Origin: Nitrososphaerota archaeon
Lineage (GTDB): Archaea > Thermoproteota > Nitrososphaeria > Nitrososphaerales > UBA57
NCBI GenBank assembly: GCA_022572285.1
Contig: JACZWF010000002.1
Coordinates: 1-34,932, forward strand
DNA length: 34,932 nucleotides
Direction of reading: 5' to 3'
Shown here: positions 15,155 through 30,406 of the stretch, piece after piece
Layout of the letters: each line of letters opens with the position of its first letter
How positions within the stretch are numbered: the stretch's first letter is position 1
Notes under the pieces: model-generated
What the model saw: only the letters and a program-made list of their open reading frames with translations
Databases searched by the model: none
What the model was told of the DNA's origin: nothing
Made by a program: the position numbers and the translations under genes

Positions 15155-15198
15155 TGCTTAATCAGGAATTAAGTCAACCTCTATCTCTGGGAACAGTC

Positions 15199-17619: not shown

Positions 17620-17734
17620 TACCGCTTCGGCTGTAGTAGATACTGGAGACTTCTTTCTCTTGGAGACCGTAATGGTTGAGAATTAACGAAGCCTAGATTT
17701 AAGTTATTTTGTCAAAAGAGTTTCGGGGTTCAGT

Positions 17735-18102: not shown

Positions 18103-18131
18103 TAGATTGAATTGGTTTAGCTAGCGCGCCT

Positions 18132-18341: not shown

Positions 18342-18342
18342 T

Positions 18343-18713: not shown

Positions 18714-18862
18714 ATTAGTAATTGAGTGTCACAGGTGTTGCATAGGATTACAGTTCTATCCCCATGATTGAAGACTCTATAATGTTCTCTGTTAATCTCA
18801 TTCTCATGGTTATGTTCTTTCACGAAGTCGAATAATCGCACCTGATAGATTGTTTTTATCAT
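18710..18862 (-). CDS. His/Cys miniprotein, 50 aa (not in track)
   Basis: MIKTIYQVRLFDFVKEHNHENEINREHYRVFNHGDRTVILCNTCDTQLLI*. ATGA overlaps at both ends. Confidence 0.45.
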   Translation of the reverse strand: MIKTIYQVRLFDFVKEHNHENEINREHYRVFNHGDRTVILCNTCDTQLLI

Positions 18863-19020
18863 TGTGGATTTCCTACTTCAAGAAGTCGTGCCGGTGTATA
18901 ATCGCAGACGCAATGATCCCATATTAGGGGACCGAATGAGTTTTCGGCATATCCCGAGTCTGGATTGTATCCCCGGGGTTGTCTTAGCTTACAATGTAAA
19001 TGACAGATGTGCTCACTCAT
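18859..19020 (-). CDS. Cys/His miniprotein, 53 aa (not in track)
   Basis: MSEHICHLHCKLRQPRGYNPDSGYAENSFGPLIWDHCVCDYTPARLLEVGNPQ*. ATGA overlaps at both ends. Confidence 0.45.
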   Translation of the reverse strand: MSEHICHLHCKLRQPRGYNPDSGYAENSFGPLIWDHCVCDYTPARLLEVGNPQ

Positions 19021-19145
19021 CCTACTCGCTTCCTAGTTCTTGGATTCCAAATACGACCACATGAAGGACAAGCTACTTCGGTATATTCCACATTGGTTTT
19101 TGTAATGAATCCATCGTATGGGCATGGGATATCGCCAAATGTCAA
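19017..19145 (-). CDS. zinc-ribbon miniprotein, 42 aa, TTG start (not in track)
   Basis: (L)TFGDIPCPYDGFITKTNVEYTEVACPSCGRIWNPRTRKRVG*. TTGA overlap with the upstream stop. Confidence 0.4.
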   Translation of the reverse strand: MTFGDIPCPYDGFITKTNVEYTEVACPSCGRIWNPRTRKRVG

Positions 19146-19327
19146 CCCAAATCTACCCGATCCCCTAGAGTGGAATTAATTTTGTCTCTGATTTCCAATA
19201 GTTCATCTTCAGTTAGCATTGATATTCTAGTGGTGCTTTCTACCGATTCATCTGCTATTGTTATGACTAGAGTGAATATATGCGAAACCATTCTGCCAGT
19301 TTTATCTTCATCGATTTCGAATTTCAT
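19142..19327 (-). CDS. hypothetical acidic protein, 61 aa
   Basis: The ATG overlaps the stop of the MazG-like gene. No family recognised. Confidence 0.45.
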   Translation of the reverse strand: MKFEIDEDKTGRMVSHIFTLVITIADESVESTTRISMLTEDELLEIRDKINSTLGDRVDLG

Positions 19328-19689
19328 TTTGATCTGCCCAAGTCTCGGGGTAGACCACCGAAGGCCCTATTCTCAATCTTCGTTAAGCACTTCTCCATAC
19401 CTTCGATGATTTGCTCGTTACTGGCTCCGAGAAGGAACATTGCCGTAAAGGTGCTATACATGATATCCCAACCTTCATCCAAGAATCCAGCCATTTCGTC
19501 GCGCTTGAGTCCATGGATCGGAGTCATTATTTCTAGGGCTTTCATGGCTCTAATATCTTCGAAGAATTCTGAGGCTTCGCTATGGATGTGAGCTATTTGG
19601 CTTCCCATTAATTGAAAGGGTCTTCCGACATGTAACTTTTGATGGACTACTCGAAGGTCGTCAAGTAGTTCGTTGAGTCCCTTAGTCAT
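19324..19689 (-). CDS. MazG-like all-alpha nucleotide pyrophosphohydrolase
   Basis: HIHSEASEFFEDIR (an ExxE-type block) and LDEGWDIMYSTFTAMFLLG...KCLTKIENR resemble phage MazG proteins. Confidence 0.45.
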   Translation of the reverse strand: MTKGLNELLDDLRVVHQKLHVGRPFQLMGSQIAHIHSEASEFFEDIRAMKALEIMTPIHGLKRDEMAGFLDEGWDIMYSTFTAMFLLGASNEQIIEGMEKCLTKIENRAFGGLPRDLGRSK

Positions 19690-19819
19690 TGCTTTTGACG
19701 CCTACCGCATGAGATTCGCCACAATGAAACATTCTCACATCACCTGCACAATGAAGATGTTCACTAAGCCTTTCTTGACAACAGGTGCATCCTTCGCAAA
19801 AGTCAAAATATTTAGTCAT
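19682..19819 (-). CDS. Cys-rich miniprotein, 45 aa (not in track)
   Basis: MTKYFDFCEGCTCCQERLSEHLHCAGDVRMFHCGESHAVGVKSND*. AAGGAGAAG lies upstream. Confidence 0.45.
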   Translation of the reverse strand: MTKYFDFCEGCTCCQERLSEHLHCAGDVRMFHCGESHAVGVKSND

Positions 19820-19853
19820 TTCTTCTCCTTTCGGTTTTTGAGTTCTTTTTCAA
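19812..19853 (-). CDS. possible 13-codon leader micro-ORF (TTG) abutting the promoter motif
   Basis: GGTGTATTGGA-TTG AAA AAG AAC TCA AAA ACC GAA AGG AGA AGA AAT GAC TAA. Its end overlaps the ATG at 19819. Confidence 0.25.
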   Translation of the reverse strand: MKKNSKTERRRND

Positions 19854-19854
19854 T

Positions 19855-19895
19855 CCAATACACCGTCTGCATGAGAAAGTTGCTGATTAATATAT
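19855..19895 (-). promoter_or_regulatory. promoter-like module D: A/T box + invariant GGTGTATTGG
   Basis: Minus-strand reading: AAAAAATAACATATATTAAT, 21 nt, GGTGTATTGG(ATTG). It lies directly after the C5-MTase stop. Confidence 0.6.
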
Positions 19896-19903
19896 GTTAT
19901 TTT

Positions 19904-20500
19904 TTAGCTCGCCTCGGTTACCAGGTGTATTGTATCTCTGATTATGCAGGCGATTGGATAAGGGATTTTCGCTCTCAATTTACTCGCTTCGTCAAAACCG
20001 AATTTCATATATTCTGGCGCTTCCATTCTCTTGTGTGAGATATAGTGTGGTGTTAGACCGATGGGGATGTTACCCCATAAGAGCCGGTGTCCTCTGACTG
20101 ACATCATAAAGTGCCAAATGGGTTTCCTTGGATAGAATTTGCTCAGACGTTTGACATTCTCCATGGCCCAATATTTGGGATTTGCTTCTTTGATTATCCT
20201 GTTGAATTCATCGACAAGTCTCATTCCTCTAGCGGGGTTTGGTGGTTTGCGTCCATGTCTGCTCTTATTCGCTTGGGATGCAGTCGTGAAGTCTGTGCAT
20301 GGTGGGGAGCCAATGATTAGATCGAAGCCTTGGAATTTGCAACCGTCGAGAGTCTTAATGTCTTGAATAATCAGTTCTCCAGGGTAGCCTTGATTTTTGA
20401 TATCGATACCGACAACTTCGTCACCATCTTCTATGAATGGAATACTCCATCCTCCCATTCCGCAAAATAGATCTAGGACCCTAAGTTGACTGGTTGTCAT
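19904..20500 (-). CDS. miniature DNA (cytosine-5) methyltransferase (~198 aa)
   Basis: Motif I VLDLFCGMGGWS, motif IV GSPPCTDFT (catalytic Cys present, T where Q is usual), motif VI AMENV, and a motif X-like IPYPIACII. There is very little room for a target-recognition domain. ATG 20500 lies inside the last codons of DUF488. Confidence 0.75.
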   Translation of the reverse strand: MTTSQLRVLDLFCGMGGWSIPFIEDGDEVVGIDIKNQGYPGELIIQDIKTLDGCKFQGFDLIIGSPPCTDFTTASQANKSRHGRKPPNPARGMRLVDEFNRIIKEANPKYWAMENVKRLSKFYPRKPIWHFMMSVRGHRLLWGNIPIGLTPHYISHKRMEAPEYMKFGFDEASKLRAKIPYPIACIIRDTIHLVTEAS

Positions 20501-20945
20501 ACTCGCGCGCAATCAAGTGAAATCCCGCCTGGTTGTGATTTGTAACTTCTTCGCCTCGGGGTAGTGGGAAGAGATGTTCTACGGTTTCGCCCAGTTTCAT
20601 CAGGTCTGGAGTGATCCATTGACCTCGGTGACACTCTTCAGGCTTTCTCTCGAGACACATGAAGGCGATATTGATGTGTTCGTCAGGGTATTCCATTACT
20701 TGAAGTGAGTGAAGAGCCTTTGCATATTCAGGTCCTCTTTCTCCAGTTTTTCCCCCAAGTCTTGGATCGTGAATGTATGAGATTCCATGATGGATAAGCG
20801 AATCTCTGAGGTATGCCTTATTGAAGTATTTGACCCGAGATCTTGGGATAGTTCTGACATCAACAAGAGTCGCTATGTCCCTGTCTTTCAGGACTTTGAT
20901 GAAGTTCGGGAGGGAAGTAAGCGAATAGCCAATGCTATAAAACAT
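20481..20945 (-). CDS. DUF488-family protein
   Basis: MFYSIGYS..., LVDVRTIPRSR, ISYIHDPRLGG and FMCLERKPEECHRG match the DUF488 pattern. The start is taken at ATG 20945 (TAATG overlap); the track start is GTG 20954. Confidence 0.75.
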   Translation of the reverse strand: MFYSIGYSLTSLPNFIKVLKDRDIATLVDVRTIPRSRVKYFNKAYLRDSLIHHGISYIHDPRLGGKTGERGPEYAKALHSLQVMEYPDEHINIAFMCLERKPEECHRGQWITPDLMKLGETVEHLFPLPRGEEVTNHNQAGFHLIAREYDNQST

Positions 20946-21067
20946 TAGAGCCACTTTTCCAGATAGATAGTCCCGTTCCGATTCTCAACCCGGTAGCCCT
21001 CACCACATAGAAGGCACTCGGCAGTTGTTGAGTTTGCTTCTATTGATATTGAGCTGTGGCTACACAT
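20945..21067 (-). CDS. miniprotein, 40 aa (not in track)
   Basis: MCSHSSISIEANSTTAECLLCGEGYRVENRNGTIYLEKWL*. It overlaps both neighbours. Confidence 0.35.
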   Translation of the reverse strand: MCSHSSISIEANSTTAECLLCGEGYRVENRNGTIYLEKWL

Positions 21068-21170
21068 TCCTAATCTCATCCCTCTTAAGAGAATTTAGTT
21101 TCCGTTCAGCTAGCCATAACTGCGCCTTCAGGATTCCATCTCGTTGTAGTAACTTTTCAATTCGTTTCAT
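21060..21170 (-). CDS. helical miniprotein, 36 aa, first ORF of operon A (not in track)
   Basis: GGTGTATTGG-ATG: MKRIEKLLQRDGILKAQLWLAERKLNSLKRDEIRNV*. Confidence 0.4.
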   Translation of the reverse strand: MKRIEKLLQRDGILKAQLWLAERKLNSLKRDEIRNV

Positions 21171-21211
21171 CCAATACACCAAGTTAGTATTAACTCAGGG
21201 TGTTTATATAA
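21171..21211 (-). promoter_or_regulatory. promoter-like module A: A/T box + invariant GGTGTATTGG
   Basis: Minus-strand reading: AAAACATAAGTTATATAA, 23 nt (containing CCTGAGTTAA), GGTGTATTGG-ATG. Confidence 0.6.
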
Positions 21212-21236
21212 CTTATGTTTTACCTAAAGTATCACT

Positions 21237-21710
21237 TTAGGGATTTGTTATTATGGCTCTAAAGGTGATTTCACCTGTAAAGTCAAAGAAGCTCAGCTCG
21301 GGGTCAACGGGGGCAATTACGAAAACAATCACTTGTGCAAGTAAACCAGTATTCGCGCTGATAATCCGTTCGTCGCCTTCGAGCCAATCTACATCATTAA
21401 TGCGCAGGATCGCACTTGCAGGTAAGAGATTGCTGGGGTTTGCGTTTGCCAAGTCCCAGATTATAGAGAGGTCTCGTGTAGTAGGATTCTCGATTATGAT
21501 ATCATATGTGATAGCGTCGCCCCCTCCAACGATACCGATACTCTGTAGTTCAGGGGTTACATTCAATGTGATTTCAGAGTAGGTTCCAGTGAACCTGATC
21601 TTCGCAACTGTTACCTGAGTAGTGAATTGTGAGTAGGCAGATCCTATGAAGAATATTATCAGGATTGGTATGATTATCCAAACGAAGAGATTTACTGGAT
21701 CCCGTTTCAT
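21237..21710 (-). CDS. secreted or membrane-anchored beta-sandwich-like protein, 157 aa
   Basis: N-terminal hydrophobic helix NLFVWIIIPILIIFFIGSAYSQ, followed by a beta-rich domain. It is the last gene of operon B. Confidence 0.55.
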   Translation of the reverse strand: MKRDPVNLFVWIIIPILIIFFIGSAYSQFTTQVTVAKIRFTGTYSEITLNVTPELQSIGIVGGGDAITYDIIIENPTTRDLSIIWDLANANPSNLLPASAILRINDVDWLEGDERIISANTGLLAQVIVFVIAPVDPELSFFDFTGEITFRAIITNP

Positions 21711-21717
21711 GGTATGT

Positions 21718-22089
21718 TTAATCCAGTTTAACCAGGTCGTGTATTTGAACTTGTTTTTGATTCAGGCCCCAATCGTCCGTTCCGTCGGTAGCCTGGAGTA
21801 TTGTATTGATTGAAGTGACATAGGTTCCCTTTCCTGATTCGCCAAAGTCCACGTAGAATTTGACGACTGTTGCTCCCTTCTTTTGGGCGTCGATTATGCA
21901 ACTCTCAGTTATCGAGAGAGTGGGACATTCACCTTTCTTTTTGTGCAGAGGACACCATACGTTTCGTAGGATCAGCGTATTGTATCGTTTGACCTCGAAA
22001 GTGTTAGTGGTGCGGTCTGCTGTGACTTCTCCAACTCTTCGCTTCTTGGTTGCGTCCTTTGGGTGTTGAAGCCATATTTGGATTCCCAT
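21718..22089 (-). CDS. hypothetical protein, 123 aa
   Basis: ATG ORF with a TAATG overlap upstream. No family recognised. Confidence 0.5.
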   Translation of the reverse strand: MGIQIWLQHPKDATKKRRVGEVTADRTTNTFEVKRYNTLILRNVWCPLHKKKGECPTLSITESCIIDAQKKGATVVKFYVDFGESGKGTYVTSINTILQATDGTDDWGLNQKQVQIHDLVKLD

Positions 22090-22256
22090 TAGGCTTCTTC
22101 TCGATAGACTAGCAAGTTATTGCATTTTGGGCATCGTGTTGGTCTCTGGTTGTTCTCTCTGGGTTTCCAGATGTGACCGCACTCTTTATGATTGAAGATA
22201 AGGGTGGTTCCTACATGCCCAATTTCGACGGGACCGCTACTCTTTGGCTTGGGCAT
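22089..22256 (-). CDS. zinc-ribbon miniprotein, 55 aa (not in track)
   Basis: MPKPKSSGPVEIGHVGTTLIFNHKECGHIWKPRENNQRPTRCPKCNNLLVYREEA*. Confidence 0.45.
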   Translation of the reverse strand: MPKPKSSGPVEIGHVGTTLIFNHKECGHIWKPRENNQRPTRCPKCNNLLVYREEA

Positions 22257-22523
22257 CTATCGTTCTATCCCCTTTTGAACGAGTTCGCCTATGGTTGAGT
22301 GGACTAGATAGAAGGCTTCGACCATTCCTCCTTTCACATCGTCCTTTTCGAAGACTCTGAATTCAACGGCAAGCATGACTCCAGATATTGTTGCTGAGGA
22401 TTTTACTAGGTAACGGCCCTGTTTGTATTGTTCCTGACCTTGCTTCTTTTTCTTTGGGCAATCATGTCCGAAGTTGGCTGCATAACGTGTTCCGCAGTCG
22501 TCGCATTTCTTCTCGTCTACCAT
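22257..22523 (-). CDS. hypothetical protein with N-terminal zinc knuckle, 88 aa
   Basis: KKCDDCGTRYAANFGHDCPKKKK. Confidence 0.5.
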   Translation of the reverse strand: MVDEKKCDDCGTRYAANFGHDCPKKKKQGQEQYKQGRYLVKSSATISGVMLAVEFRVFEKDDVKGGMVEAFYLVHSTIGELVQKGIER

Positions 22524-22871
22524 TTAGCTGACCTCGAATATTCCATCTGGATGAATTGCGCACCATGAAAGAAGGATGGAAAGAGCGTATCCGACATTAC
22601 CTTCTGAGGCTTCCCAATAGTCGTCGACTCTCTCGGTTCCGAGCTCCTTCACCGCTTTTCTTAAAGTCTCTTCGACATCTCGCGCCTTCTTTCCGTTGAG
22701 TTGTTTAAGTCCTTCCTCTGGAGAGTATTTCCAAATATGCTTACTGTAATTGTAGGTTACATTTAGCCAGGCGTCCGTTGTTCCACCTATCATTTGAGTT
22801 CCTCCTTCTTGATGATTTGGAACCTCTAGGCTTTCTCCAGTAGCCGACCGTAAATAGACATCGTGACTCAT
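22524..22871 (-). CDS. hypothetical protein, 115 aa
   Basis: ATG ORF. No family recognised. Confidence 0.5.
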   Translation of the reverse strand: MSHDVYLRSATGESLEVPNHQEGGTQMIGGTTDAWLNVTYNYSKHIWKYSPEEGLKQLNGKKARDVEETLRKAVKELGTERVDDYWEASEGNVGYALSILLSWCAIHPDGIFEVS

Positions 22872-22876
22872 TTCAA

Positions 22877-22963
22877 TCAGTCTCTCCTGTTATAGCATGT
22901 CAGGCATACGCTTAGGTAGGATTTGGTGATCTTGCGACCGCAGTTTGGGCAGAGTCGAGCCAT
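22877..22963 (-). CDS. zinc-ribbon micro-protein, 28 aa (not in track)
   Basis: MARLCPNCGRKITKSYLSVCLTCYNRRD*. TAATG overlap upstream. Confidence 0.35.
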   Translation of the reverse strand: MARLCPNCGRKITKSYLSVCLTCYNRRD

Positions 22964-23181
22964 TAGTCCACATCCGTTGATATGGCTGGTGTCGCTGTGT
23001 TCTCTCCATAAACTCGATGAATGTGACTTGTGAATTCATCTTGGCTTCGTGCTAGTCGTTCTTCCAGAAGTTGAATTCGATTTGAATGTTTCTCTACGAG
23101 TGATAAGAGTGTCTTGATTTGTAGTTCGGATAGTTCGTAATTCTTTTCTATCTTTTGAAGTCGCAATTCTAAATACGACAT
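22963..23181 (-). CDS. coiled-coil protein, 72 aa
   Basis: Heptad-rich sequence LRLQKIEKNYELSELQIKTLLSLVEKHSNRIQLLEERL. Confidence 0.5.
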   Translation of the reverse strand: MSYLELRLQKIEKNYELSELQIKTLLSLVEKHSNRIQLLEERLARSQDEFTSHIHRVYGENTATPAISTDVD

Positions 23182-23324
23182 TATAGTTTATTCCACGTTC
23201 CATCTTCGTTTAGCTGGATCAGCATTCCTTCTTCGAGGCCGTCTATTCCCTCAGAGTCCATAGTGCTATATTCCTCGTTGACCGTCGCACTCACCCACCG
23301 CGCGCGGTCTTCATTCATCTCCAT
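23181..23324 (-). CDS. acidic miniprotein, 47 aa (not in track)
   Basis: MEMNEDRARWVSATVNEEYSTMDSEGIDGLEEGMLIQLNEDGTWNKL*. Confidence 0.35.
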   Translation of the reverse strand: MEMNEDRARWVSATVNEEYSTMDSEGIDGLEEGMLIQLNEDGTWNKL

Positions 23325-23458
23325 CGCTCCAGATTAGAGTCCAGATATTCGGTCCTGAATCCGAGCTTCTCCATTTGTGCATGTAACTCGTTATCTATTT
23401 CTTGCTGGGCGTGTTTCACAGCTCTTTCATATTCTTCGTTAGTTAGTCGTTTAGTCAT
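23315..23458 (-). CDS. helical miniprotein, 47 aa, first ORF of operon B (not in track)
   Basis: GGTGTATTGGAAC-ATG: MTKRLTNEEYERAVKHAQQEIDNELHAQMEKLGFRTEYLDSNLERWR*. Confidence 0.4.
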   Translation of the reverse strand: MTKRLTNEEYERAVKHAQQEIDNELHAQMEKLGFRTEYLDSNLERWR

Positions 23459-23461
23459 GTT

Positions 23462-23502
23462 CCAATACACCAGTAGAGGGTTAACTCTAGGGGTATTAAT
23501 AT
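23462..23502 (-). promoter_or_regulatory. promoter-like module B: A/T box + invariant GGTGTATTGG
   Basis: Minus-strand reading: AAAGATAACATATTAAT, 23 nt (containing CCTAGAGTTAA), GGTGTATTGG-AAC-ATG. Confidence 0.6.
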
Positions 23503-23519
23503 GTTATCTTTAACGTAAG

Positions 23520-24044
23520 TTATGCTGTTTCTTTGGTCTGTTTGATGAGGAGTGCGACCCTCTTGGCTGAGACATGATATTCTTTTGCTAGGAACCTTAC
23601 CGATTCACCCTGGGACCTTCTGAGCATTTCAAGTAGTTCCATGGCTTCGACCTTCTGCCTCTTGTCTAGGAGTTCTCTAACCTGTTTTTGACCGGCTTCC
23701 CATTCGTCAGCCTTTCTTTGCATCTCTTCCGTATGGACTGAATCTCCGAGTGTCTTATCCATGGCATCGACAACTTCTTGGTGATTGGTTGACTCCTCGG
23801 CTAGTTTGCTCCAGAGCAGATAATCGTTGTAAGCTAATTGTGGGAACCGTCGCATTGTCTTTACCCATGGTTTATCCTCAAAGTCCGAATTCGGACTTTC
23901 ATCTTTCGTGTATGACCGCTTCCATTCTTGGGGTGCGTGATCATAGAGAGTTGATTTTGCTAGGCCGTTAAAGTCTTCGAGAAGTTTCTGACAGATATCC
24001 TCTTTTGGGTGGCCTCTTAATTCAAGATTTTGACCGGCTGCCAT
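23520..24044 (-). CDS. putative DNA-binding regulator with C-terminal HTH, 174 aa
   Basis: The C-terminus reads GESVRFLAKEYHVSAKRVALLIKQ. TAAGGAGAT lies 5 nt before the ATG. It is the last gene of operon C. Confidence 0.45.
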   Translation of the reverse strand: MAAGQNLELRGHPKEDICQKLLEDFNGLAKSTLYDHAPQEWKRSYTKDESPNSDFEDKPWVKTMRRFPQLAYNDYLLWSKLAEESTNHQEVVDAMDKTLGDSVHTEEMQRKADEWEAGQKQVRELLDKRQKVEAMELLEMLRRSQGESVRFLAKEYHVSAKRVALLIKQTKETA

Positions 24045-24157
24045 GACGATCTCCTTAGTCTTACCATACCACGACTTGAACGTAGTATCCCATTGATTTC
24101 TCAGAGAATTATACTCGGTTAGTAATCCATCGTCTATCAGAGTTAGGTCTTTGAAGA

Positions 24158-24328
24158 TTAGCTGGTATGTCTATTTACCCTTTGCGCTTCCTCATCAGCT
24201 ATTTTCTGTTCGTAGGCTCTATCCTTTGCCTTTTTTTCTGTATCGCATTGAAGGCATTGCCACGTAAAGAAGATATTATGCTTCGTGCAGTATTGCTGAT
24301 TTTCATATCTGGATTTTATTTTACCCAT
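24158..24328 (-). CDS. miniprotein, 56 aa (not in track)
   Basis: MGKIKSRYENQQYCTKHNIFFTWQCLQCDTEKKAKDRAYEQKIADEEAQRVNRHTS*. Confidence 0.4.
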   Translation of the reverse strand: MGKIKSRYENQQYCTKHNIFFTWQCLQCDTEKKAKDRAYEQKIADEEAQRVNRHTS

Positions 24329-24351
24329 GAGAATTTAGACTCTTGCTCGCG

Positions 24352-24540
24352 CTAATGGGCAGGTCTTCCCACCTTTTTGTTGATCGGTTTCTTTCTCCAG
24401 AACTTCATTTTGACGTATCTCTCCCGTCCACCCATCTCTCTAAGATCGAGTCTAACGTCCAAATAGTTCTCTTTCTTCATTCGGTTGAGAACTTTATCTA
24501 CTTCGTAGTCTCTACAGACGATTGTAATTATTCCAGGCAT
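24352..24540 (-). CDS. basic protein, 62 aa (ATG 24540; track start is GTG 24567)
   Basis: MPGIITIVCRDYEVDKVL...KKPINKKVGRPAH, with an AT-hook-like GRP at the C-terminus. Confidence 0.45.
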   Translation of the reverse strand: MPGIITIVCRDYEVDKVLNRMKKENYLDVRLDLREMGGRERYVKMKFWRKKPINKKVGRPAH

Positions 24541-24672
24541 GACTTGACACCAAAAGAGGGGAGCCACTTGACCACGGAACCCCCATCATAGGCTCTATGA
24601 TAAGCCTTATGGTTTAATTATTCAATAGACTACATAATTCCTGCTTCGTATGGGCCCTTTAGTTCAACATTT

Positions 24673-25761
24673 CTAAGATATGTTTTCAGGCATGATGGTA
24701 TCTCTGTTCATTAATGCCTGCAACTCTTTTTTTGTAGGTTTTGGGCTTTTGATCTTGGATCGTCTAGGCTTCGTCCCTCGGCTCTTGATTGACTTCTTGA
24801 ACACCATGTAGAACGTAAGAATTGGCTGCGGGTGAGGGACTTGGTGGACCATCGGTCTCACGCCCTTATAGAATATTCGACTGACCCATTCGAACTGACT
24901 CTGCTTGTTCCATCGGTGATCGTAGAACATGGCTGCTTCAAAATCTCCAGGATAATAGTGCCACTCTTTATGATATTCTCCTATCTTGACTATCAGGCCA
25001 TCTCTTGATACTCGGTTGAATTCTGCCCATGTATTCTGAAAGTTCAGATATGGACGGACGAATTGATTCGAGAGATGTGATCCCGTTGTGCGGTTTGCGT
25101 GGATGAATCTATGAATAGGGTTCTTGGACTTGCCCATTATTGGAGCTGCGTTACGGACATAAGTATCGGCTCTGCTTTGTTTGTTTTGCTGGATTAGTGC
25201 GAGAGTATTCCCGGGTCTCATTCGGGGATTAGGTGATTCCCAATACTTCGAAATATCGTGTTGGAGTCCCATATAGAGTTGTTCGTTTCGTGTGATTTTC
25301 GTTCTCCCTCCATCCCTGATAAAAGCCATTGAACTCTTGCCACCCTTTCGCTTGCTTAGATCTTCGGAATTTAGTTCCGCAGGTCCCGTTTGGTAGAAGA
25401 GTCTAGGATCGCGGGAGTAGTGAGCTTCGAGTCTGGGATCGTTGAGTCTATCATCCATTAAGGACGGAGTAAAGGGGAAGTCGCAAAATATGACGTCGAC
25501 TGAATTGTCGGCGAAGGGTAACTGCCAAGCATGGGCTTGTATGATATCTTTGGCTTGTGGCGATATGTCCATGAATGTAACATCGTAGCCTCTCATCTTT
25601 CGATTGAATAGCGTCTCTCGATTATTGATTCCTAGAAATTGCTTCCATACGAGCTTTCGCCCTGCGGTGACATCGAGGATTGTAGTAGGAGCTGGCCAAA
25701 AGAAGGGTATGATCTTACGTAGAGTCTGACCGAGTGGTATATTGAGTAATAGATTATACAA
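24673..25761 (-). CDS. putative SAM-dependent DNA methyltransferase (N6A/N4C type)
   Basis: Motif I-like ILDVTAGR and motif IV-like VIFCDFPF (DPPY-type) lie within the first ~100 aa. The basic C-terminal tail reads KPRRSKIKSPKPTKK. Confidence 0.5.
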   Translation of the reverse strand: MYNLLLNIPLGQTLRKIIPFFWPAPTTILDVTAGRKLVWKQFLGINNRETLFNRKMRGYDVTFMDISPQAKDIIQAHAWQLPFADNSVDVIFCDFPFTPSLMDDRLNDPRLEAHYSRDPRLFYQTGPAELNSEDLSKRKGGKSSMAFIRDGGRTKITRNEQLYMGLQHDISKYWESPNPRMRPGNTLALIQQNKQSRADTYVRNAAPIMGKSKNPIHRFIHANRTTGSHLSNQFVRPYLNFQNTWAEFNRVSRDGLIVKIGEYHKEWHYYPGDFEAAMFYDHRWNKQSQFEWVSRIFYKGVRPMVHQVPHPQPILTFYMVFKKSIKSRGTKPRRSKIKSPKPTKKELQALMNRDTIMPENIS

Positions 25762-26074
25762 CGAGCTTCACGTTTTGCATCTCTGTCGCTAGATCATGAA
25801 TCTTTAGCCGACCCTTGATATAGAACCACACTTGCACTCGTATGTTGTCAGCACTTATTTTACTCCAATATTCTTCTATTACTTTTCGCTCTTTTGGATT
25901 AATGTAATCTTTTTTGACTTGTATCAGAAGGACTTGGCTAGGGAAGATTGCTATCAGATCAAATATACCTTTGCTTGCATAGGCTCTCATGACAGTTAGA
26001 GCTCCCATTTTACGAAGTCTTTTCATGGCTCCGTATTCTCTGGCTCGGCCCTTCGCGTAATTTGTAAGAGTCAT
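25754..26074 (-). CDS. hjc: Hjc-type (archaeal Holliday-junction resolvase-like) PD-(D/E)xK nuclease fold protein with QxK variant
   Basis: KGRAREYGAMKRLRKMGALTVMRAYASKGIFDLIAIFPSQVLLIQVKK aligns by eye with the Hjc pattern KGxxxERExxxxLxxxGFxVxRxxxS...DLxA......IEVK. The start is taken at MTLTNY (ATGA overlap); the track start is 26143. Confidence 0.6.
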   Translation of the reverse strand: MTLTNYAKGRAREYGAMKRLRKMGALTVMRAYASKGIFDLIAIFPSQVLLIQVKKDYINPKERKVIEEYWSKISADNIRVQVWFYIKGRLKIHDLATEMQNVKLVV

Positions 26075-26211
26075 TCGAAGCCCCACCTTCCATGATTCCT
26101 GATGACTGGAACTCCTCTCCTTATTTTGTAGCAGTTTCCACACTCCCTAGCTTGGCGGGTCTTGAGTTTCAGACAGTCGGGGTTTGAAGTCTCATTCGGA
26201 CATGGTCTCAT
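26071..26211 (-). CDS. zinc-ribbon miniprotein, 46 aa (not in track)
   Basis: MRPCPNETSNPDCLKLKTRQARECGNCYKIRRGVPVIRNHGRWGFE*. Confidence 0.4.
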   Translation of the reverse strand: MRPCPNETSNPDCLKLKTRQARECGNCYKIRRGVPVIRNHGRWGFE

Positions 26212-26218
26212 TCCATTA

Positions 26219-26551
26219 TTACTCATTGACAAGCCATCTCTTCGTGACTGCGTTTCTAATATCGTCTGGAGATTGCTTCAAAGCGTCTATGAGAATTTTC
26301 AGAGAGAGTCCTATGAGAGCGCCGTTTGCGTCTGAGAATTCAATGGCTTGTTGATTCAAATTTAGCTGTTGATCTTCATCTAACAACATTTCACCGGTCC
26401 CTAGTCTTTCCCATTCTAAGGATTTGAAGTATGTCTCTTTCAGGTCTCCGAGGAATTTCACCGAGACCGCAACGTGAACTCGATCACATTTCAGACAAGT
26501 CCACAATAAGCCTCCGTCGGATCTTAGTTTAACTGTCATCTCTCTTCTCAT
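26219..26551 (-). CDS. hypothetical protein, 110 aa
   Basis: N-terminal sequence WTCLKCDRVH. No family recognised. Confidence 0.5.
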   Translation of the reverse strand: MRREMTVKLRSDGGLLWTCLKCDRVHVAVSVKFLGDLKETYFKSLEWERLGTGEMLLDEDQQLNLNQQAIEFSDANGALIGLSLKILIDALKQSPDDIRNAVTKRWLVNE

Positions 26552-26928
26552 TCGCGAGCTCTCCGGACTATTTCATCGGTCACTCCCTGAGGGTCTGCTA
26601 AGACTCTTTCGTTTTTGAATCGGAGAGGTTGCTTGAATCCTAGTCTTATGACATGATCGTCAGCCTTCTCGTCCCTTCGGATCTGCCTAGGTTTGTCATG
26701 GATTGATCCGTCGAAATAGACGGGTAGGATCTCGTTCACCCTCATATCGGGGAAATGGGCATAGTCACATATCGAGCAAGCTATGACCGCGCCATCCTCG
26801 GAGACGAATGAAACTGGTGGCTTCACTGCCTGAAGATAAGGGATCATGTGGATGTGCGCTGGAGTGTATTGGGAGACCGTAGGAAAGTCTGAACGTCTCG
26901 AACTCGTGCCTTTACCCCATTGATTCAT
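26548..26928 (-). CDS. hypothetical protein, 126 aa
   Basis: 4-nt overlaps at both ends. No family recognised. Confidence 0.5.
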   Translation of the reverse strand: MNQWGKGTSSRRSDFPTVSQYTPAHIHMIPYLQAVKPPVSFVSEDGAVIACSICDYAHFPDMRVNEILPVYFDGSIHDKPRQIRRDEKADDHVIRLGFKQPLRFKNERVLADPQGVTDEIVRRARE

Positions 26929-27386
26929 AATGTTACGACTCTCATGGCTTGAAGTCCTAAGTGTCTGGTATCGACGATGATAGCAATAGCATCAGGGAGT
27001 GACGCACTCTCTAATTCTAGATCAGGTATGAAATACTTGCGTGGGATTACGAGAGGGATCTGGGGTAAGGAATGGTGTCGTTTGACTATTATAGGCTCTT
27101 CTTCTTGTGAAGACTTGATTACTTCCTTCTCTATTTCTCCTTCCTCATGATTTGAAGTAATTTCATTAATTAGTATCCGAGTCCTTTCGCTCAGTAGAAT
27201 CTTGTCTGGATAGAAGCCTTCATTCATCATCTCATGGATGGCTGCTGTGATTTTTTCTTCGAATGGAGTTATGTTCAGTAGTTTGTCGAGGTCGATAGGT
27301 GCGATTCCCATGCTATAGCCTCCATGAATTAGAACCCCCTCCCATTTCTTGAATTCGACAACTCTTGCTGTGGTGCGCGTCTCCAT
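26925..27386 (-). CDS. hypothetical protein, 153 aa
   Basis: ATG ORF with an acidic central linker. No family recognised. Confidence 0.5.
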   Translation of the reverse strand: METRTTARVVEFKKWEGVLIHGGYSMGIAPIDLDKLLNITPFEEKITAAIHEMMNEGFYPDKILLSERTRILINEITSNHEEGEIEKEVIKSSQEEEPIIVKRHHSLPQIPLVIPRKYFIPDLELESASLPDAIAIIVDTRHLGLQAMRVVTL

Positions 27387-27462
27387 TCAAATATCCTCGT
27401 AGGGATATTCCACAAGAGTCACAAGTCCAGATATCGATAGGATGTAATTTTGCCATACACAC

Positions 27463-27717
27463 TCACACAATCGGGACGAATGATGGGACGGCTTTAAGCT
27501 GTCCATCTATCTCTACGACTGAACCAACAGCTATCAAGACATTAAGGTATTCATTGAATCGAGCTCTCGAAGCGAATCCTTGGATATCTAGGGCATTGGC
27601 TAAGTTATCTCTATCTGAACCTGTAGGACTCTTAGCTATCAGTTGTCGAAGGTGTTCGATTCTCCTAGCTCTCTCTATTGCTTTTGGGTTTGCCATACCG
27701 GGGGAGAATTGAGTCAT
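27463..27717 (-). CDS. small winged-helix-like DNA-binding protein, 84 aa
   Basis: RARRIEHLRQLIAKSPTGSDRDNLANALDIQGFASRARFNEYLNVLIAVGSV has the helix-turn-helix plus wing pattern. Confidence 0.4.
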   Translation of the reverse strand: MTQFSPGMANPKAIERARRIEHLRQLIAKSPTGSDRDNLANALDIQGFASRARFNEYLNVLIAVGSVVEIDGQLKAVPSFVPIV

Positions 27718-27809
27718 TGGTGTTTATACTCCATGGAACCGCAGCAGCTACATTCATTCTCTAAACAATCGATCTCAGTATGCCCCTCACAAGAAATGCA
27801 ATGAGTCAT
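27714..27809 (-). CDS. Cys-rich micro-protein, 31 aa (not in track)
   Basis: MTHCISCEGHTEIDCLENECSCCGSMEYKHQ*. ATGA overlaps at both ends. Confidence 0.35.
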   Translation of the reverse strand: MTHCISCEGHTEIDCLENECSCCGSMEYKHQ

Positions 27810-28018
27810 CTTGGGACTTTCCTCTTCTTAGCGCAGGGCTTACAAAACATGTCATCGGTTAATGACTTTAGAAAGTTGGTCCCAAAGTTCTCGCTGTTTG
27901 ATCTACCACCAATACCGAAGCTGTTGCATATGGGGTCTGTCTGTCCTTTCGAAAAGAAGTGTATTTTCCAGCCACCACCAAGTTTATTCCACCCGGCCGT
28001 TTCGTCTGCCCCTTTCAA
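27806..28018 (-). CDS. hypothetical protein, 70 aa (TTG start, TTGA overlap)
   Basis: Gly-rich, with C-terminal FCKPCAKKRK. Confidence 0.4.
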   Translation of the reverse strand: MKGADETAGWNKLGGGWKIHFFSKGQTDPICNSFGIGGRSNSENFGTNFLKSLTDDMFCKPCAKKRKVPR

Positions 28019-28509
28019 TTACCTGCCTCCAGTTGAGGAGCGTCTATCGTGAATGTTGGGAGAATACTCGAACTGTTTGGGTTTGCTATCATCTCCACCG
28101 CCACCTCTCCAATGGTTCCTACTTTTCCACCTGGCAGATTCGTTAGAACTGAACTCAGGAATTCTTTCTCAAAGGATTCAAGTCCAAATCTGACGGCCTC
28201 CAACTTCACTTTAAGATACCACCACATTAGTCGAAGAGATGCTTCCATGTTGACTGAAGTAACTCCGGCCTTATTCGTATGAGCTAGAGCTGGAGGCGTC
28301 ATTTTGAAGCCGATCGTTCGACTCACCCCTTTAATCTCTAGTTTCATAATAAACTGTAGAGTTGGGGGTTGACCGAGTTCATAGTCTTCCGTCCACTGTG
28401 CTGCTTTGGCTCCTGTCTTTTTCAGCAGGCTTTCAATATCTGCTTTCGTTCTCTCCGGTGGGATTGTCGTATCTTGATATGGAATACGTGGCTGTTTGGG
28501 TCTCCTCAA
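28015..28509 (-). CDS. hypothetical early protein, 164 aa (TTG start)
   Basis: First sizeable gene after promoter module C. No family recognised. Confidence 0.55.
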   Translation of the reverse strand: MRRPKQPRIPYQDTTIPPERTKADIESLLKKTGAKAAQWTEDYELGQPPTLQFIMKLEIKGVSRTIGFKMTPPALAHTNKAGVTSVNMEASLRLMWWYLKVKLEAVRFGLESFEKEFLSSVLTNLPGGKVGTIGEVAVEMIANPNSSSILPTFTIDAPQLEAGN

Positions 28510-28559
28510 GACATCCCATTCCCGATTGTATGTATGCGTATGCGTAACTCTTTAGCCAT
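28506..28559 (-). CDS. possible 17-codon leader micro-ORF
   Basis: GGTGTATTGG-ATG: MAKELRIRIHTIGNGMS*. Its TGA overlaps the TTG start of the next gene (TTGA). Confidence 0.3.
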   Translation of the reverse strand: MAKELRIRIHTIGNGMS

Positions 28560-28598
28560 CCAATACACCACATTTTCAGGCGTGGGTTCCCAATATAA
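28560..28598 (-). promoter_or_regulatory. promoter-like module C: A/T box + invariant GGTGTATTGG
   Basis: Minus-strand reading: AACCTTATATTG, 21 nt, GGTGTATTGG-ATG. Confidence 0.6.
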
Positions 28599-28616
28599 GG
28601 TTAGTGGCTTGATCTT

Positions 28617-28727
28617 TTAGAGCGGGAAGAACAATAAATTCAACAGATTCAGCATCCCAATAGCGACTGCTGCAAGAGTTAGGAGTATGAAAATTGCGTT
28701 CAGTTGGTCTTTCTTCCTTTGCTCCAT
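28617..28727 (-). CDS. single-pass membrane micro-protein, 36 aa (not in track)
   Basis: MEQRKKDQLNAIFILLTLAAVAIGMLNLLNLLFFPL*. It lies between the tail block and promoter C. Confidence 0.3.
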   Translation of the reverse strand: MEQRKKDQLNAIFILLTLAAVAIGMLNLLNLLFFPL

Positions 28728-28783
28728 AGTCAATTTAAAACGACTACCGATATTAAAGGTATGTATGTTTCATCTGCGACAAT

Positions 28784-30406
28784 TTAATCAATGAAATCGA
28801 GCGCGGTAAATCTCATTACTGATTGTCCGAGATCTTTGTGAGTTAGATCGAAGCTCATGTCTATCAATTCCATGAGGCTGTTGACTCCTGTGCTTGGAGC
28901 CTTCTGTTGATGGACCTGAACCATGGTTCCTATTTGGGGGACGTCATCGGGCGCGTATGAAGTGAATGTTATGATTCGCTTCTGTTTGGAGAGTCTTGCT
29001 ACCTGTTCAGAGATCAGTTGTTGCATGGTTTCCCTTTCTCGTATTGCTGGATTGCTGAAGACGTCTTCTCTCAAACCATATTTTTCAATAGAATCGTCCT
29101 CGGCAGCAGTTGTTAGAAGTCGGTTAGATGAAAGGGTTCTGAAGCCGTAACCTACTCCAGTCGAGTCGACGGTCCAAGTTGAACCATTAGCTGAAAAGGC
29201 TGAGGTGTGAGTTGTGAGAGCGTCATGAAACCACCTGTAGGTATTTCCTGCGCTTCCTACTTTGTTGAGAATGAGCCAATAGTTCTGCTTCGTGTTTAGG
29301 AATTCAGCTCCTATGTCAATGTAATACCAGGCTTGACCTGAAGCGATCTTGTCTTTCCCAAGAGCAAATGCTTTGACGATGGCGCCATTTGGATCGTCTG
29401 CATCGTTGTCGTCGTCGAAGGTTTCTCTGACTTGTCCCTGGAGATCTACGAGTGGCGTTCCTGTTTTGTCGATATTGATTGCGATGTAAGCAAGTTTGTT
29501 TTTATCCGGTGTAAATTTGATAGCTCGAAAGTTCGCGTCCAGAGCATCGGGTCCTCCTGTGACAGTCTCTTGGAATTGGTCTTTCTCTAGTTCATCTCCA
29601 CCAAGTCCGAAGAGTCGGTTGATCGTATAGCCTTCGATTATCTCGCTGACTGTGAAAGGTTCATCGTCAACAATAATACCTTTCAGAGTTTCGTCGTGAG
29701 TTTCATCGGGGTCGTCGGTGAATAGGACCCCGGAGTTAGAAGTCTCTGGGTCAGTGAATTGTAGGACGCCTAGGGTGTCTATCCAGAAGTCTTTGCCATC
29801 CACTTCAGAAAGTTCTTTGAGAATGTCTGAAATGGGTTTCATCTCTCCGAAGTATTGAGGTATCTTTTTGGTTGAAAGGGAGACTCCTGCAACTGAGATC
29901 CCTTCGTCTTCCATGGTTGGCTCTCCAGTTGGATAAGCGTCTTCTTCTTGGATTAGGTCTTTCACTAGGTTATCGATTCGGGTCTTCGTGTCTGTGTTAT
30001 CTTGCGTAACTCCGTCTGCTTGTCGATCTTGGATTCTTAGGAGATTACCTATTCGATGGAATAGTCGGTTCGTGATACCGAGACCTGTGAGCTCATAGAC
30101 TAGCTCATTGGCGTTTCTTCGGTGTCGCTTGACTTGTTCGACTCGGCCCAAGAAGTGAGGTTGAGTTGGGAAGGTTGACGTCTTCGAGAGGAATACTTTG
30201 ACGGTGTTGCCATTTCCGAAGGCGTTCAGTAGTGCTGCTGCTGAGTCTTCTATCTCTAGGATTAGTCGAGAAGCTTTCCCCTGGATTTGTGGATTGAAAG
30301 ACGTCCTCAGTAAGTTGAACTGGTGAGTTGGTGGGAAGGGGTCGAAGGTTCGGGTTTGCGTTCCTGTTATGGTGACCTTTGCCTTGACTGGATCTTCATT
30401 AACCAT
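28784..30406 (-). CDS. tail protein immediately downstream of the tape measure (distal tail / baseplate-type)
   Basis: 540 aa. Its ATG abuts the tape-measure stop. The call rests on position only. Confidence 0.5.
   Translation of the reverse strand: MVNEDPVKAKVTITGTQTRTFDPFPPTHQFNLLRTSFNPQIQGKASRLILEIEDSAAALLNAFGNGNTVKVFLSKTSTFPTQPHFLGRVEQVKRHRRNANELVYELTGLGITNRLFHRIGNLLRIQDRQADGVTQDNTDTKTRIDNLVKDLIQEEDAYPTGEPTMEDEGISVAGVSLSTKKIPQYFGEMKPISDILKELSEVDGKDFWIDTLGVLQFTDPETSNSGVLFTDDPDETHDETLKGIIVDDEPFTVSEIIEGYTINRLFGLGGDELEKDQFQETVTGGPDALDANFRAIKFTPDKNKLAYIAINIDKTGTPLVDLQGQVRETFDDDNDADDPNGAIVKAFALGKDKIASGQAWYYIDIGAEFLNTKQNYWLILNKVGSAGNTYRWFHDALTTHTSAFSANGSTWTVDSTGVGYGFRTLSSNRLLTTAAEDDSIEKYGLREDVFSNPAIRERETMQQLISEQVARLSKQKRIITFTSYAPDDVPQIGTMVQVHQQKAPSTGVNSLMELIDMSFDLTHKDLGQSVMRFTALDFID

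Follow-up and report, generated by a model that had tools for sequence, protein, structure and literature searches.

Why does one exact 10-mer, GGTGTATTGG, recur beside start codons in the genome of a virus, each time at a similar distance from an A/T-rich box? The window, i.e., the whole 34,932-nucleotide stretch of DNA analysed here, derives from a tailed virus of about 35 kb, whose hosts are probably ammonia-oxidising archaea of deep-sea sediment. Named relatives of its portal protein belong to Thaumarchaeota/Nitrososphaerota, Geothermarchaeales, and Woesearchaeota or are called simply "archaeon"; all are from archaeal MAGs, mainly of Nitrososphaerota. Terminase relatives with 41-47% identity carry the name Nitrososphaerales archaeon, and one relative comes from 3104-m deep-sea sediment. 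The archaeal affiliation of the virus is thus shown indirectly, by names of MAG proteins at 30-47% identity. No provirus or CRISPR spacer link to a host was found.

Five exact copies of GGTGTATTGG were present in the window, while 0.02 were expected from shuffles; when up to one mismatch was allowed, nine matches were obtained against 1.19 expected. Four copies are located on the gene (minus) strand, exactly at the coordinates reported in an earlier note on this DNA, which overlooked the fifth copy on the plus strand (7606-7615). The raw 10-mer count alone is weak evidence, because in a look-elsewhere control 10 of 100 Markov shuffles yielded some 10-mer at five copies. Four occurrences were recorded for the extended 12-mers TGGTGTATTGGA and GGTGTATTGGAT, and no 12-mer exceeded three copies in 200 shuffles; an 11-mer at five copies was seen in 1 of 200. 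As the earlier note had claimed, every copy is intergenic: all five fall into the 8.0% of the window that lies outside ORFs, the chance of which is 0.08^5, or ~3e-6.

The copies were compared with those of viral relatives sharing about 75-90% nucleotide identity (L005, L003, and L133). The four gene-strand sites, designated P4 to P1, and two associated sites are as follows.

28592-28605, minus strand: P4 BRE/TATA-like box ACTAACCTTATATT, at −36 to −23 from the motif; 14 of 14 positions identical in L005
28560-28569, minus strand: P4 motif GGTGTATTGG, predicted +1 to +10, with an ATG directly after it at 28559; conserved in L005 at 2549-2558
28506-28559, minus strand: P4 leader ORF of 17 codons, MAKELRIRIHTIGNGMS, whose stop overlaps the TTG start of a 164-aa gene
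23494-23507, minus strand: P3 BRE/TATA-like box ATAACATATTAATA; 14 of 14 positions identical in L005
23462-23471, minus strand: P3 motif; an ATG at 23458 opens a 47-aa ORF; L005 counterpart at 6527-6536
21203-21216, minus strand: P2 BRE/TATA-like box ATAAGTTATATAAA, identical in L005 and L133
21171-21180, minus strand: P2 motif, with an ATG directly after it at 21170; conserved in L005 (8937-8946) and L133 (837-846)
19887-19900, minus strand: P1 BRE/TATA-like box ATAACATATATTAA, as read from the sequence
19855-19864, minus strand: P1 motif, followed by aTTG and a 13-codon ORF
24542-24551, minus strand: degenerate motif counterpart GGTGTCAAGT, without an A/T box, before an ATG at 24540
28750-28757, minus strand: motif-less candidate TATA box TTTAATAT, 22 nt before an ATG at 28727; conserved in L005

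Each copy in the window is preceded by an A/T-only block at −31 to −23 and by a T at −1, and is followed by a start codon after 0-3 nt. The A/T boxes, their distance of 21-23 nt from the first G of GGTGTATTGG (the predicted +1), and the proximity of the start codons read as described in the earlier note. Its short ORFs were likewise recovered (one of 17 codons at 28559-28506, one of 47 aa beginning at 23458, one of 36 aa at 21170-21060, and at 19853 a TTG ORF of 13 codons), and the spacer sequence CCT(A)GAGTTAA is indeed common to copies 2 and 3. In the case of P2, the 36-aa ORF is followed by a 44-aa ORF, a DUF488 gene, and a C5 methylase gene.

Ten copies (five from the window, four from L005, and one from L003) were aligned. 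The A/T content was 100% at −29, −27, −26, and −24 and 90% at −28 and −25, and ranged from 80 to 100% over positions −31 to −23 against a background of 55%. A C-rich stretch follows at −22 to −19. A T is present at −1 in eight of the ten copies and a G at the predicted +1 in all ten, which corresponds to a pyrimidine/purine initiator. The position of a BRE is occupied by ATAA(C/G) at −36 to −32 in only three of the six promoters (P1, P2, and P3); the element is shifted by 1 nt in P4, and is absent from P5 and from an extra L005 site. The orientation of GGTGTATTGG relative to the box and the start codon is identical in all six independent sites, and none of the aligned copies is more than 3 nt away from its start codon. 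At these sites, GGTG is found 6, 6, 7, 8, 8, and 9 nt before the ATG, i.e., within the 5-9 nt at which a Shine-Dalgarno core is placed upstream of a start codon, and GGTGA-type sites precede other genes of the same virus group.

Conservation of the motif and its spacing in related genomes, which the earlier note had proposed as a test, was observed. In the three promoters that are homologous between the window and L005, 42 of 42 positions of the 14-nt boxes and 30 of 30 positions of the motifs were identical (together 72/72), while the 22-nt spacer had drifted (54/66 identical), as had upstream sequence (89/102). P2 is also kept in a third genome, L133. The alignments thus demonstrate purifying selection on box and motif. 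No copy of GGTGTATTGG was found in a more distant relative, L130, whose portal protein is 48% identical; the motif is therefore lineage-specific, and the comparison has little phylogenetic depth.

Homology breakpoints are located at or adjoining five of the six cassettes, as at mosaic junctions of the PeSL kind (see below). In the case of P3, the window and L005 are homologous up to 2 nt past the motif, beyond which L005 has another gene. L133 homology begins about 45 nt before the P2 box; at P1, homology ends 13 nt before the box, and neither L005 nor L003 has the P1 cassette or the genes that follow it. The P4 leader ORF has equal length in L005, with three residue changes, yet the gene downstream is different. 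The extra L005 site is a full cassette ahead of the same gene that is preceded by the degenerate GGTGTCAAGT in the window, and there homology begins exactly at the ATG.

The fifth copy differs in its surroundings, and the following features were recognized in this part of the structural module.

7606-7615, plus strand: P5, the fifth exact GGTGTATTGG, followed by atATG and a 16-codon ORF (7618-7668), on a strand without genes
7577-7584, both strands: shared A/T box, reading TGATAAAA on the plus and TTTTATCA on the minus strand, a candidate bidirectional TATA box; conserved in L003
7595-7645, minus strand: predicted hairpin in the minus-strand RNA around P5, with G-rich and C-rich arms and a T-rich tract after them

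P5 points antisense, toward the gene at 7703-8299. Its motif is invariant in L003 (14469-14478) despite flank substitutions and a 2-nt indel. From the shared box it is 21 nt to the motif on the plus strand, and 23 nt to the ATG (7553) that opens an 89-aa gene on the minus strand. In the folds predicted for the window and L003, the anti-motif AAUACACCA is unpaired, and the arms of the hairpin show compensating differences between the two genomes, with z-scores that are not significant (−0.9 and −1.8). P5 is the only copy embedded in a hairpin; an 8-bp hairpin before P2 is weakened in L005. Rfam gave no match for the whole window at the gathering score, and none for 7400-7800 at E<=1.

In M. jannaschii, the TATA box has its 3' edge 23±2 nt away from the transcription start in 94% of the promoters, with a T at −1, a purine at +1, and a BRE just upstream (PMC2699501). 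Leaders of 9 nt are able to hold a ribosome-binding site. Thaumarchaeota, 11 of 11, were classed among genomes with a promoter box 22-24 nt from leaderless starts and a ribosome-binding site 6-8 nt from other starts (PMC6028130). The box-to-motif spacing was equated with the archaeal TATA-to-start distance in the earlier note, and the block at −31 to −23 fits the 23±2 nt rule; the first G of GGTGTATTGG is therefore where transcripts are expected to start, and the 10-mer would then be the entire 5' untranslated leader. Each copy of GGTGTATTGG is thus probably, as far as sequence can tell, one promoter-plus-leader cassette of an archaeal virus. The host TBP and TFB would bind the A/T-rich TATA box at −31 to −24, which in three promoters has ATAA(C/G) before it at the position of a BRE, and RNA polymerase would start 21-23 nt downstream of the box, going by the spacing alone. 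The GGUG of the leader, situated 6-9 nt before the start codon of a short first ORF that would overlap the next gene, would pair with the 3' end of 16S rRNA, which in the host is assumed to be like that of archaea in general. The five cassettes of the genome would form one promoter class, of which four members would head non-structural gene blocks and one would fire antisense from the shared TATA box in the structural module. The geometry, the rules of strand and position, and the selection on box and motif are visible in the sequences; where transcription starts, that ribosomes bind at GGUG, and that the five copies are regulated together are what we infer. The cassette is a genuine control element under selection, of a type already familiar, and not a new mechanism. 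Several points speak against this reading, among them the restriction of the BRE-like element to three of six promoters and the lack of the motif in L130. A Shine-Dalgarno sequence might also be inefficient when it is placed right at the 5' end of a leader of 10 nt, and at P1 the start after the motif is only the TTG of the 13-codon ORF, the next real gene (45 aa, start at 19819) having its own GGAG 35 nt further on.

The proposal that the copies partition the non-structural half into four operons found no support. A scan of the gene strand (15000-34932) revealed no intrinsic (hairpin) terminators, and no T-tract was seen by eye before the copies; and at least five other TATA-like candidate promoters lack GGTGTATTGG. 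The count of four copies was incomplete as well, the fifth being antisense to all genes. One of the motif-less promoters, TTTAATAT, would be of the leaderless type, and the ATG at 28727 opens a 36-aa membrane peptide. On present evidence, then, GGTGTATTGG marks one class of candidate promoters, and others do without it. The two proteins put forward as HTH regulators (23520-24044 and 27463-27717) had no significant HTH match (Pfam E=0.036 and 0.084); a PDB sequence search with the proposed regulators returned nothing relevant, and the AF2 model had a pLDDT of 51.

Promoter and Shine-Dalgarno function do not by themselves explain why six bases, TATTGG, are invariant. The most likely reason is added recognition, by a protein or an RNA, common to the class; TATTGG may act as an operator, as an operator of translation, or as the target of antisense pairing. 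Were the 10-mer a DNA operator, a viral or host protein bound at +1 to +10 of archaeal promoters would block or permit polymerase recruitment and switch all five together, in control of temporal class or lysogeny. This is unlikely; it is compatible with the promoter-plus-leader reading and would account for the invariance of GGTGTATTGG. TATTGG is needless for TATA or Shine-Dalgarno function. The site overlaps the predicted start, where archaeal repressors (e.g., MDR1, Phr, and SSV1 F55) commonly act, the existence of candidate promoters without the motif is as expected of a regulated subset, and small proteins are numerous in this genome, CxxC pairs being discernible by eye in some of them. 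However, comparison of GGTGTATTGG with its complement CCAATACACC revealed no dyad symmetry, and there is a single site per promoter, which does not suit a dimeric HTH or RHH protein; the one orientation fixed in 6/6 sites is not required of a DNA-only site, adjacency to the start codon is not predicted, and no DNA-binding domain was confirmed in the proposed regulators. Action of the 10-mer in mRNA, as an operator or antisense target, is very unlikely. Either a translational repressor protein would bind the leader, or the leader would pair with the complementary CCAAUACACC of the minus-strand (late, structural) transcript at 7615-7606, so that the four leaders would have their ribosome-binding site hidden by late transcripts; in the other direction, structural mRNA could be bound by the P5 transcript. 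On the gene strand, the exact complement occurs only here, within the conserved predicted hairpin of the structural transcript; it extends over 10 nt (12 nt in the case of GGTGTATTGGAT) and is kept in L003, and the unpaired anti-motif, the compensating arms, the start codon adjacency, and the strict strandedness all fit. Yet the plus-strand copy, having its own A/T box at the expected distance and its own start codon, is more simply a fifth promoter, the hairpin scores are not significant, the site is covered by two genomes only, and no known RNA family matches. It is quite unlikely that the invariant leader serves a riboregulatory switch encoded by the virus, in which a fifth, co-regulated promoter would fire in the opposite direction from the site of the complement, and early leaders and late transcripts would shut each other down by base pairing over the ribosome-binding site; if true, a single 10-mer would underlie a timing circuit in a virus that infects ammonia-oxidising archaea.

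Two further explanations dispense with an archaeal promoter or with selection. If the A/T box were a bacterial −10 element, transcription would start ~7 nt later, with the 10-mer as the 3' portion of a ~27-nt leader that includes the Shine-Dalgarno sequence. A TAnnnT hexamer is present in three of the six boxes, and the distance of GGTG from the start codon (6-9 nt) would suit a Shine-Dalgarno sequence of bacteria as well. This is hardly credible, given that the other three boxes contain no TAnnnT, neither a −35 nor a TGn element is conserved, σ70-like sites are not enriched (25 against 30.9 expected in a region-wide scan), the gene strand lacks intrinsic terminators over 15000-34932, the named portal and terminase relatives are all archaeal, and 50,697 phage records contained no relatives, with terminase matches of only 30-34% identity. 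It is highly improbable that the copies are a passive repeat, i.e., recent duplicates or cassettes homogenised by recombination in which the 10-mer is not selected. Such an origin agrees with the homology breakpoints at cassettes (P3, the extra L005 copy, P2 in L133, and P1), with the 164-aa gene, which follows P4 in the window and P3 in L005, and with the shared CCT(A)GAGTTAA. Within one genome, however, the spacers and boxes of different copies are unalike, and the copies are therefore not recent duplicates; moreover, 0/72 changes in motif and box against ~15% flank divergence would have a probability of ~1e-5 under neutrality.

The promoter-plus-leader cassettes proposed here can be set beside several known systems. 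PeSL cassettes of T4-type phages and lambdoid "boundary sequences" are conserved promoter cassettes at mosaic junctions, and are bacterial σ70 early promoters with stem-loops. The cassettes in the window are likewise situated at mosaic junctions, with genes exchanged between cassette-headed units, but are of the archaeal TATA type and have no conserved stem-loop at the four gene-strand copies. In T7-type class promoters and T4 RegA translational operators, a near-identical sequence is present at the start site or ribosome-binding site of many phage genes, as is the case here for the predicted start site or ribosome-binding site; unlike in those phages, we found neither an evident gene for a phage RNA polymerase nor a RegA-like protein in this genome. 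The F55 sites of SSV1, through which promoters are co-regulated, are repeated, are bound by a dimeric RHH protein, and overlap the start sites of early promoters. GGTGTATTGG is similarly a short sequence common to several virus promoters at or near the predicted start, but it is a single asymmetric site in fixed orientation. Promoters of the rudivirus SIRV have a conserved GTC just downstream of the TATA box; in both viruses a virus-wide conserved element is added to a host-type TATA promoter, but the element described here is located at +1 to +10 rather than beside the TATA box, is 10 nt long, and is linked to the start codon. The leaderless first-gene promoters typical of Thaumarchaeota (GeneMarkS-2 group D, PMC6028130) have the same box and the 22-24 nt rule, which two other candidate promoters of this genome follow exactly (22 and 23 nt from box to ATG). 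Unlike these, the motif class puts 10-13 nt, with a Shine-Dalgarno leader, between the predicted start site and the start codon. The archaeal BRE/TATA/Inr promoters of M. jannaschii (PMC2699501) share with the cassettes an 8-nt A/T box with its 3' edge 21-23 nt before the predicted start, the T at −1 and G at +1, in three of the six cassettes an A-rich element directly upstream, and a short leader with a predicted ribosome-binding site. While cellular initiators contain about 1 bit of information, the ten bases from +1 are invariant here, and make up the whole predicted leader.

The 10-mer GGTGTATTGG was found five times in the window, each copy forming part of a cassette that consists of an A/T box, a spacer of ~22 nt, the motif and a start codon. 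All genes of the window are on the minus strand. The earlier note had reported four copies; its minus-strand positions all proved right, but the plus-strand copy had been overlooked. Its description of the A/T boxes, their spacing, the start codons after the motif and the short overlapping ORFs agreed with what we observed. The exact copies are:

P1: from 19855, minus strand
P2: from 21171, minus strand
P3: from 23462, minus strand
P4: from 28560, minus strand
P5: 7606-7615, plus strand

In dinucleotide shuffles, 0.02 exact matches were expected against the five observed, and 1.19 against nine when up to one mismatch was allowed. Since any repeated word might have caught the reader's eye, a look-elsewhere control was performed with Markov shuffles of the window. 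In 10 of 100 shuffles at least one 10-mer had five copies, which makes the count, taken alone, a weak argument. An 11-mer with five copies appeared in 1 of 200 shuffles, while extended 12-mers around the motif have four copies each, against a 12-mer maximum of three in 200 shuffles. The position of the copies is a stronger argument than the word count: non-coding DNA makes up 8.0% of the window, and 5/5 copies fall inside it (~3e-6). The one-mismatch copies (four versus ~1.2 expected) all lie on the plus strand inside genes, lack a consistent A/T box, and were set aside as chance or coding constraint. One of them, GGTGTATTGT (19924-19933, plus strand), lies 17 nt beyond the P1 A/T box on its other side, a layout that mirrors the P5 arrangement. 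This copy is conserved in L005, a contig of a related virus; because it falls within the 3'-terminal part of the C5-methylase coding sequence, its conservation may reflect coding constraint.

Other repeats were also noted. TAACCGAG, seen near three promoters, is not enriched (three copies, equalled in 5/100 shuffles). The next most repeated 12-mer behind the motif, CGCGACTTCGGC, has three copies, all within structural genes (2219-2230 and 3981-3992, plus strand; 9366-9377, minus strand); it may be due to chance, as three copies were seen in 48/200 shuffles. Six reverse-complement 10-mers lie within 1.6 kb (3615-5178) of L009, a 460-kb IMG/VR contig, and are probably a coding or tandem repeat unconnected with this virus.

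Ten copies were aligned on the motif: the five of the window, four of L005 and a single one of L003, another related contig. An A/T-only block occupies positions −31 to −23, with A/T in 100% of copies at −29, −27, −26 and −24; it is followed by a C-rich stretch at −22 to −19 and, in P1, P2 and P3, preceded by ATAA(C/G) at −36 to −32. T is found at −1 in eight of the ten copies, the 10-mer itself is invariant, and the next position is A in nine. The motif is followed within 0-3 nt by ATG, replaced by TTG at P1. Promoters of M. jannaschii prefer T at −1 and a purine at +1, and have the BRE directly upstream (PMC2699501). If the first G of the motif is taken as the putative start, the cassette geometry is that predicted by the rule from the same work, which places the TATA box's 3' edge 23±2 nt from the start site. 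GeneMarkS-2 assigned all Thaumarchaeota (11/11) to its "group D", in which leaderless first genes have a promoter box at 22-24 nt and the other genes an RBS 6-8 nt ahead of them (PMC6028130). Leaders of 9 nt with an RBS are documented, and GGTGA-type sites precede other genes of this virus group. Two candidate promoters of the leaderless type obey the group D spacing exactly:

TTTAATAT: box-to-ATG distance 22 nt (ATG at 28727)
TTTTATCA: box-to-ATG distance 23 nt (ATG at 7553)

Conservation in related genomes, by which the earlier note had proposed to judge the motif, was borne out. L005 (13 kb, ~75-90% identical in blocks) spans the entire early region and carries four exact gene-strand copies, namely the counterparts of P4, P3 and P2 and one new site. 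The three homologous promoters were compared segment by segment.

Identity of homologous promoters P4, P3 and P2 between the window and L005
14-nt box: 42/42 identical
Motif: 30/30 identical
22-nt spacer: 54/66 identical
Upstream sequence: 89/102 identical

By our own arithmetic, 72 unchanged positions at ~15% flank divergence have a probability of ~1e-5 under neutrality. A conserved box together with a conserved motif is, as read from these alignments, the footprint expected of a promoter. A third genome, represented by the 1.5-kb contig L133, also retains the P2 box and motif, there behind a different upstream gene, and the plus-strand copy is retained in L003, where the spacer has substitutions and a 2-nt indel. 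Neither a copy nor an equivalent repeated motif was found in L130, a more distant contig (portal 48% identical). A scan of IMG/VR with the 14-mer TGGTGTATTGGATG gave only single chance matches without an A/T box; the few loci with two TGGTGTATTGGATG copies did not have the architecture. Thus only a narrow lineage has the motif, and the comparison of its conservation has little depth. We conclude that the cassette is a real, selected regulatory element.

At ~35 kb, the window represents essentially one entire virus genome, and contigs of 34,848 and 35,012 nt were obtained in independent assemblies. Its genes include a portal, a terminase ATPase, a long tape-measure-like gene and Laminin_G tail proteins. 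The cultured phage records searched contained no virus of this lineage. Of 50,697 phage records, none matched 19000-29000 in Megablast; tblastn of the portal against phages gave no match, and the terminase gave only matches of 30-34% identity (Thermus, Meiothermus and Microcystis phages). Most virus proteins have no PHROG match. The portal had no match in IMG/VR; scans of GTDB genomes with the portal and with DUF488, and of metagenome contigs with the 174-aa protein, found nothing. A full HMMER scan with the portal recovered 121 distant homologues, and every one with an NCBI name came from an archaeal MAG: Thaumarchaeota/Nitrososphaerota (two clusters), Geothermarchaeales, Woesearchaeota and an "archaeon", the last on a 321-kb contig with a decayed provirus. 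Terminase-ATPase homologues of 41-47% identity, on 106- and 140-kb contigs, are named Nitrososphaerales archaeon. One close relative came from deep-sea sediment at 3104 m in the Northwest Indian Ocean (PMC9235088). The count of sigma-70-like sites shows no enrichment (25 versus 30.9 expected), and the gene strand contains no hairpin-plus-T terminator in 15000-34932. No host link via a provirus or spacer was found. On the indirect evidence of the archaeal names of the portal and terminase homologues, the sigma-70 count and the absence of terminators in that region, we take the host to be an archaeon, probably one of the Nitrososphaerota.

Two further features were observed in passing. The terminase large subunit (16344-17297) appears as an ATPase-only ORF of 232-317 aa, depending on the start; homologues in L134 and L136 (278-298 aa, 41-47% identity) are single genes among cellular genes on Nitrososphaerales MAG contigs of 53-140 kb, pointing either to a terminase that is split throughout the family or to domesticated copies. 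A segment of ~93 nt is tandemly doubled inside the 840-aa tape-measure-like gene, and a ~73% identical copy lies inside a 448-aa head-module gene whose residues 275-330 match phrog_4454; the loci are 4014-4205 and ~10770-10862, and the segment may be a shared domain or repeat.

The best supported reading of the cassette, which we hold to be fairly probable, is that transcription would proceed from a host-type TATA promoter and start at the motif's first G, which would make the 10-mer the entire 5' leader of the mRNA. Its GGUG, 6-9 nt before the start codon (normal Shine-Dalgarno spacing), would serve as the RBS for a short first ORF overlapping the gene behind it. Promoter plus Shine-Dalgarno function can account for the box and its spacing, for T/G at −1/+1, for GGTG and for the adjacent start codon; it does not explain the constancy of TATTGG, which points to an extra recognition step shared across the class. 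Such a step could be provided by a DNA operator over the start site, a rather unlikely reading though compatible with the TATA-promoter model, or, less likely still, by an operator or antisense target at the RNA level. The orientation is fixed in 6/6 independent sites and the start codon adjoins the motif, so we tend to favour a role exerted through the transcript or at initiation over a symmetric repressor site.

Several other readings were rejected. Taking the box for a bacterial −10 element fails, since there is no −35 or TGn, TAnnnT fails in 3/6 boxes, and the affiliation is archaeal. Against iterons or an origin, the copies are scattered rather than clustered; against transposon ends, they form no paired inverted copies; every one is intergenic and adjoins a start codon, which argues against Chi-like sites. 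Neither a polymerase nor any other informative Pfam match was found in the large ORFs tested, against a promoter for a phage-encoded RNA polymerase, and no tRNA or known RNA family was found.

P5 is found on the plus strand, which has no genes, in a gap of 149 nt within the structural module. Its A/T box, TGATAAAA (7577-7584), is 21 nt upstream of the motif, and atATG is just downstream. On the other strand, the box is 23 nt from the ATG of an 89-aa gene and may thus act as a TATA box in both directions. Plus-strand transcription from 7606 would enter the gene at 7703-8299 in antisense, and P5 is most simply read as a fifth promoter of the motif class, one that gives rise to an antisense RNA. 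On the minus-strand RNA, a predicted hairpin encloses the site; its G-rich and C-rich arms carry compensating differences when L003 is set against the window, and in both genomes AAUACACCA, the anti-motif, is predicted to be unpaired. Fold z-scores of the hairpin were not significant and no Rfam family matched it; direct pairing between leader and hairpin is possible, but unsupported.

The proposal that the copies delimit four operons was not upheld: no T-tract was seen by eye before the copies, and no gene-strand hairpin terminator was found in 15000-34932, so the copies may be internal promoters on read-through transcripts. There are also at least five TATA-like candidates without the motif:

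28757-28750
7584-7577, minus-strand reading
24114-24107
~17710-17695
~24625

At 24108-24136 (minus strand), TAGACG-17 nt-TATAAT, which ranks second among the sigma-70-like matches of the scanned region, coincides with a TATA-like box located upstream of the 174-aa gene and conserved in L005; the site may be a promoter that lacks the motif and has a ~38-nt leader and a GGAG site. For the 174-aa and 84-aa proteins, which the earlier note took for HTH regulators, searches of Pfam, PHROGs and PDB sequences gave no significant DNA-binding domain (a single-sequence AF2 model of the 174-aa protein has pLDDT 51). "Intergenic" gaps or small ORFs at 18628-18709, 22872-22962 and 21079-20945 encode CxxC...CxxC zinc-ribbon-like peptides, e.g., CPACGSGRYLEIERMDGSLIEGFCHRCGF, unannotated small proteins that may bind nucleic acids.

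Homology between relatives breaks at or beside cassettes:

P3: homology ends 2 nt past the motif
Extra L005 copy: homology starts exactly at the ATG behind it (its window counterpart is only GGTGTCAAGTCATG, without an A/T box)
P2, in L133: homology starts ~45 nt before the box
P1: homology ends 13 nt before the box

A 164-aa gene (phrog_17260) lies behind P4 in the window (28015-28509) and behind P3 in L005 (6807-7307), with 72% nucleotide identity between the two; its placement is gene shuffling between cassette-headed units.

To our knowledge, nothing is known of how tailed viruses of Nitrososphaerota regulate their genes, and the cassette is the first concrete, testable regulatory signal for this lineage of uncultured thaumarchaeal tailed viruses. 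It predicts precise start points for five transcripts and marks a promoter class, co-regulated on our reading, one member of which lies antisense within the structural genes. The motif may be of use in fishing for its regulator, in recognising related viruses, and as an expression signal for thaumarchaeal genetics. The class is virus-specific and is built on a host-type archaeal core promoter, and is not a new principle. Compared with the leaderless default of group D, it adds a leader of exactly 10-13 nt. As module boundaries in an archaeal virus, the cassettes parallel, and behave like, the mobile promoter cassettes of some phages.
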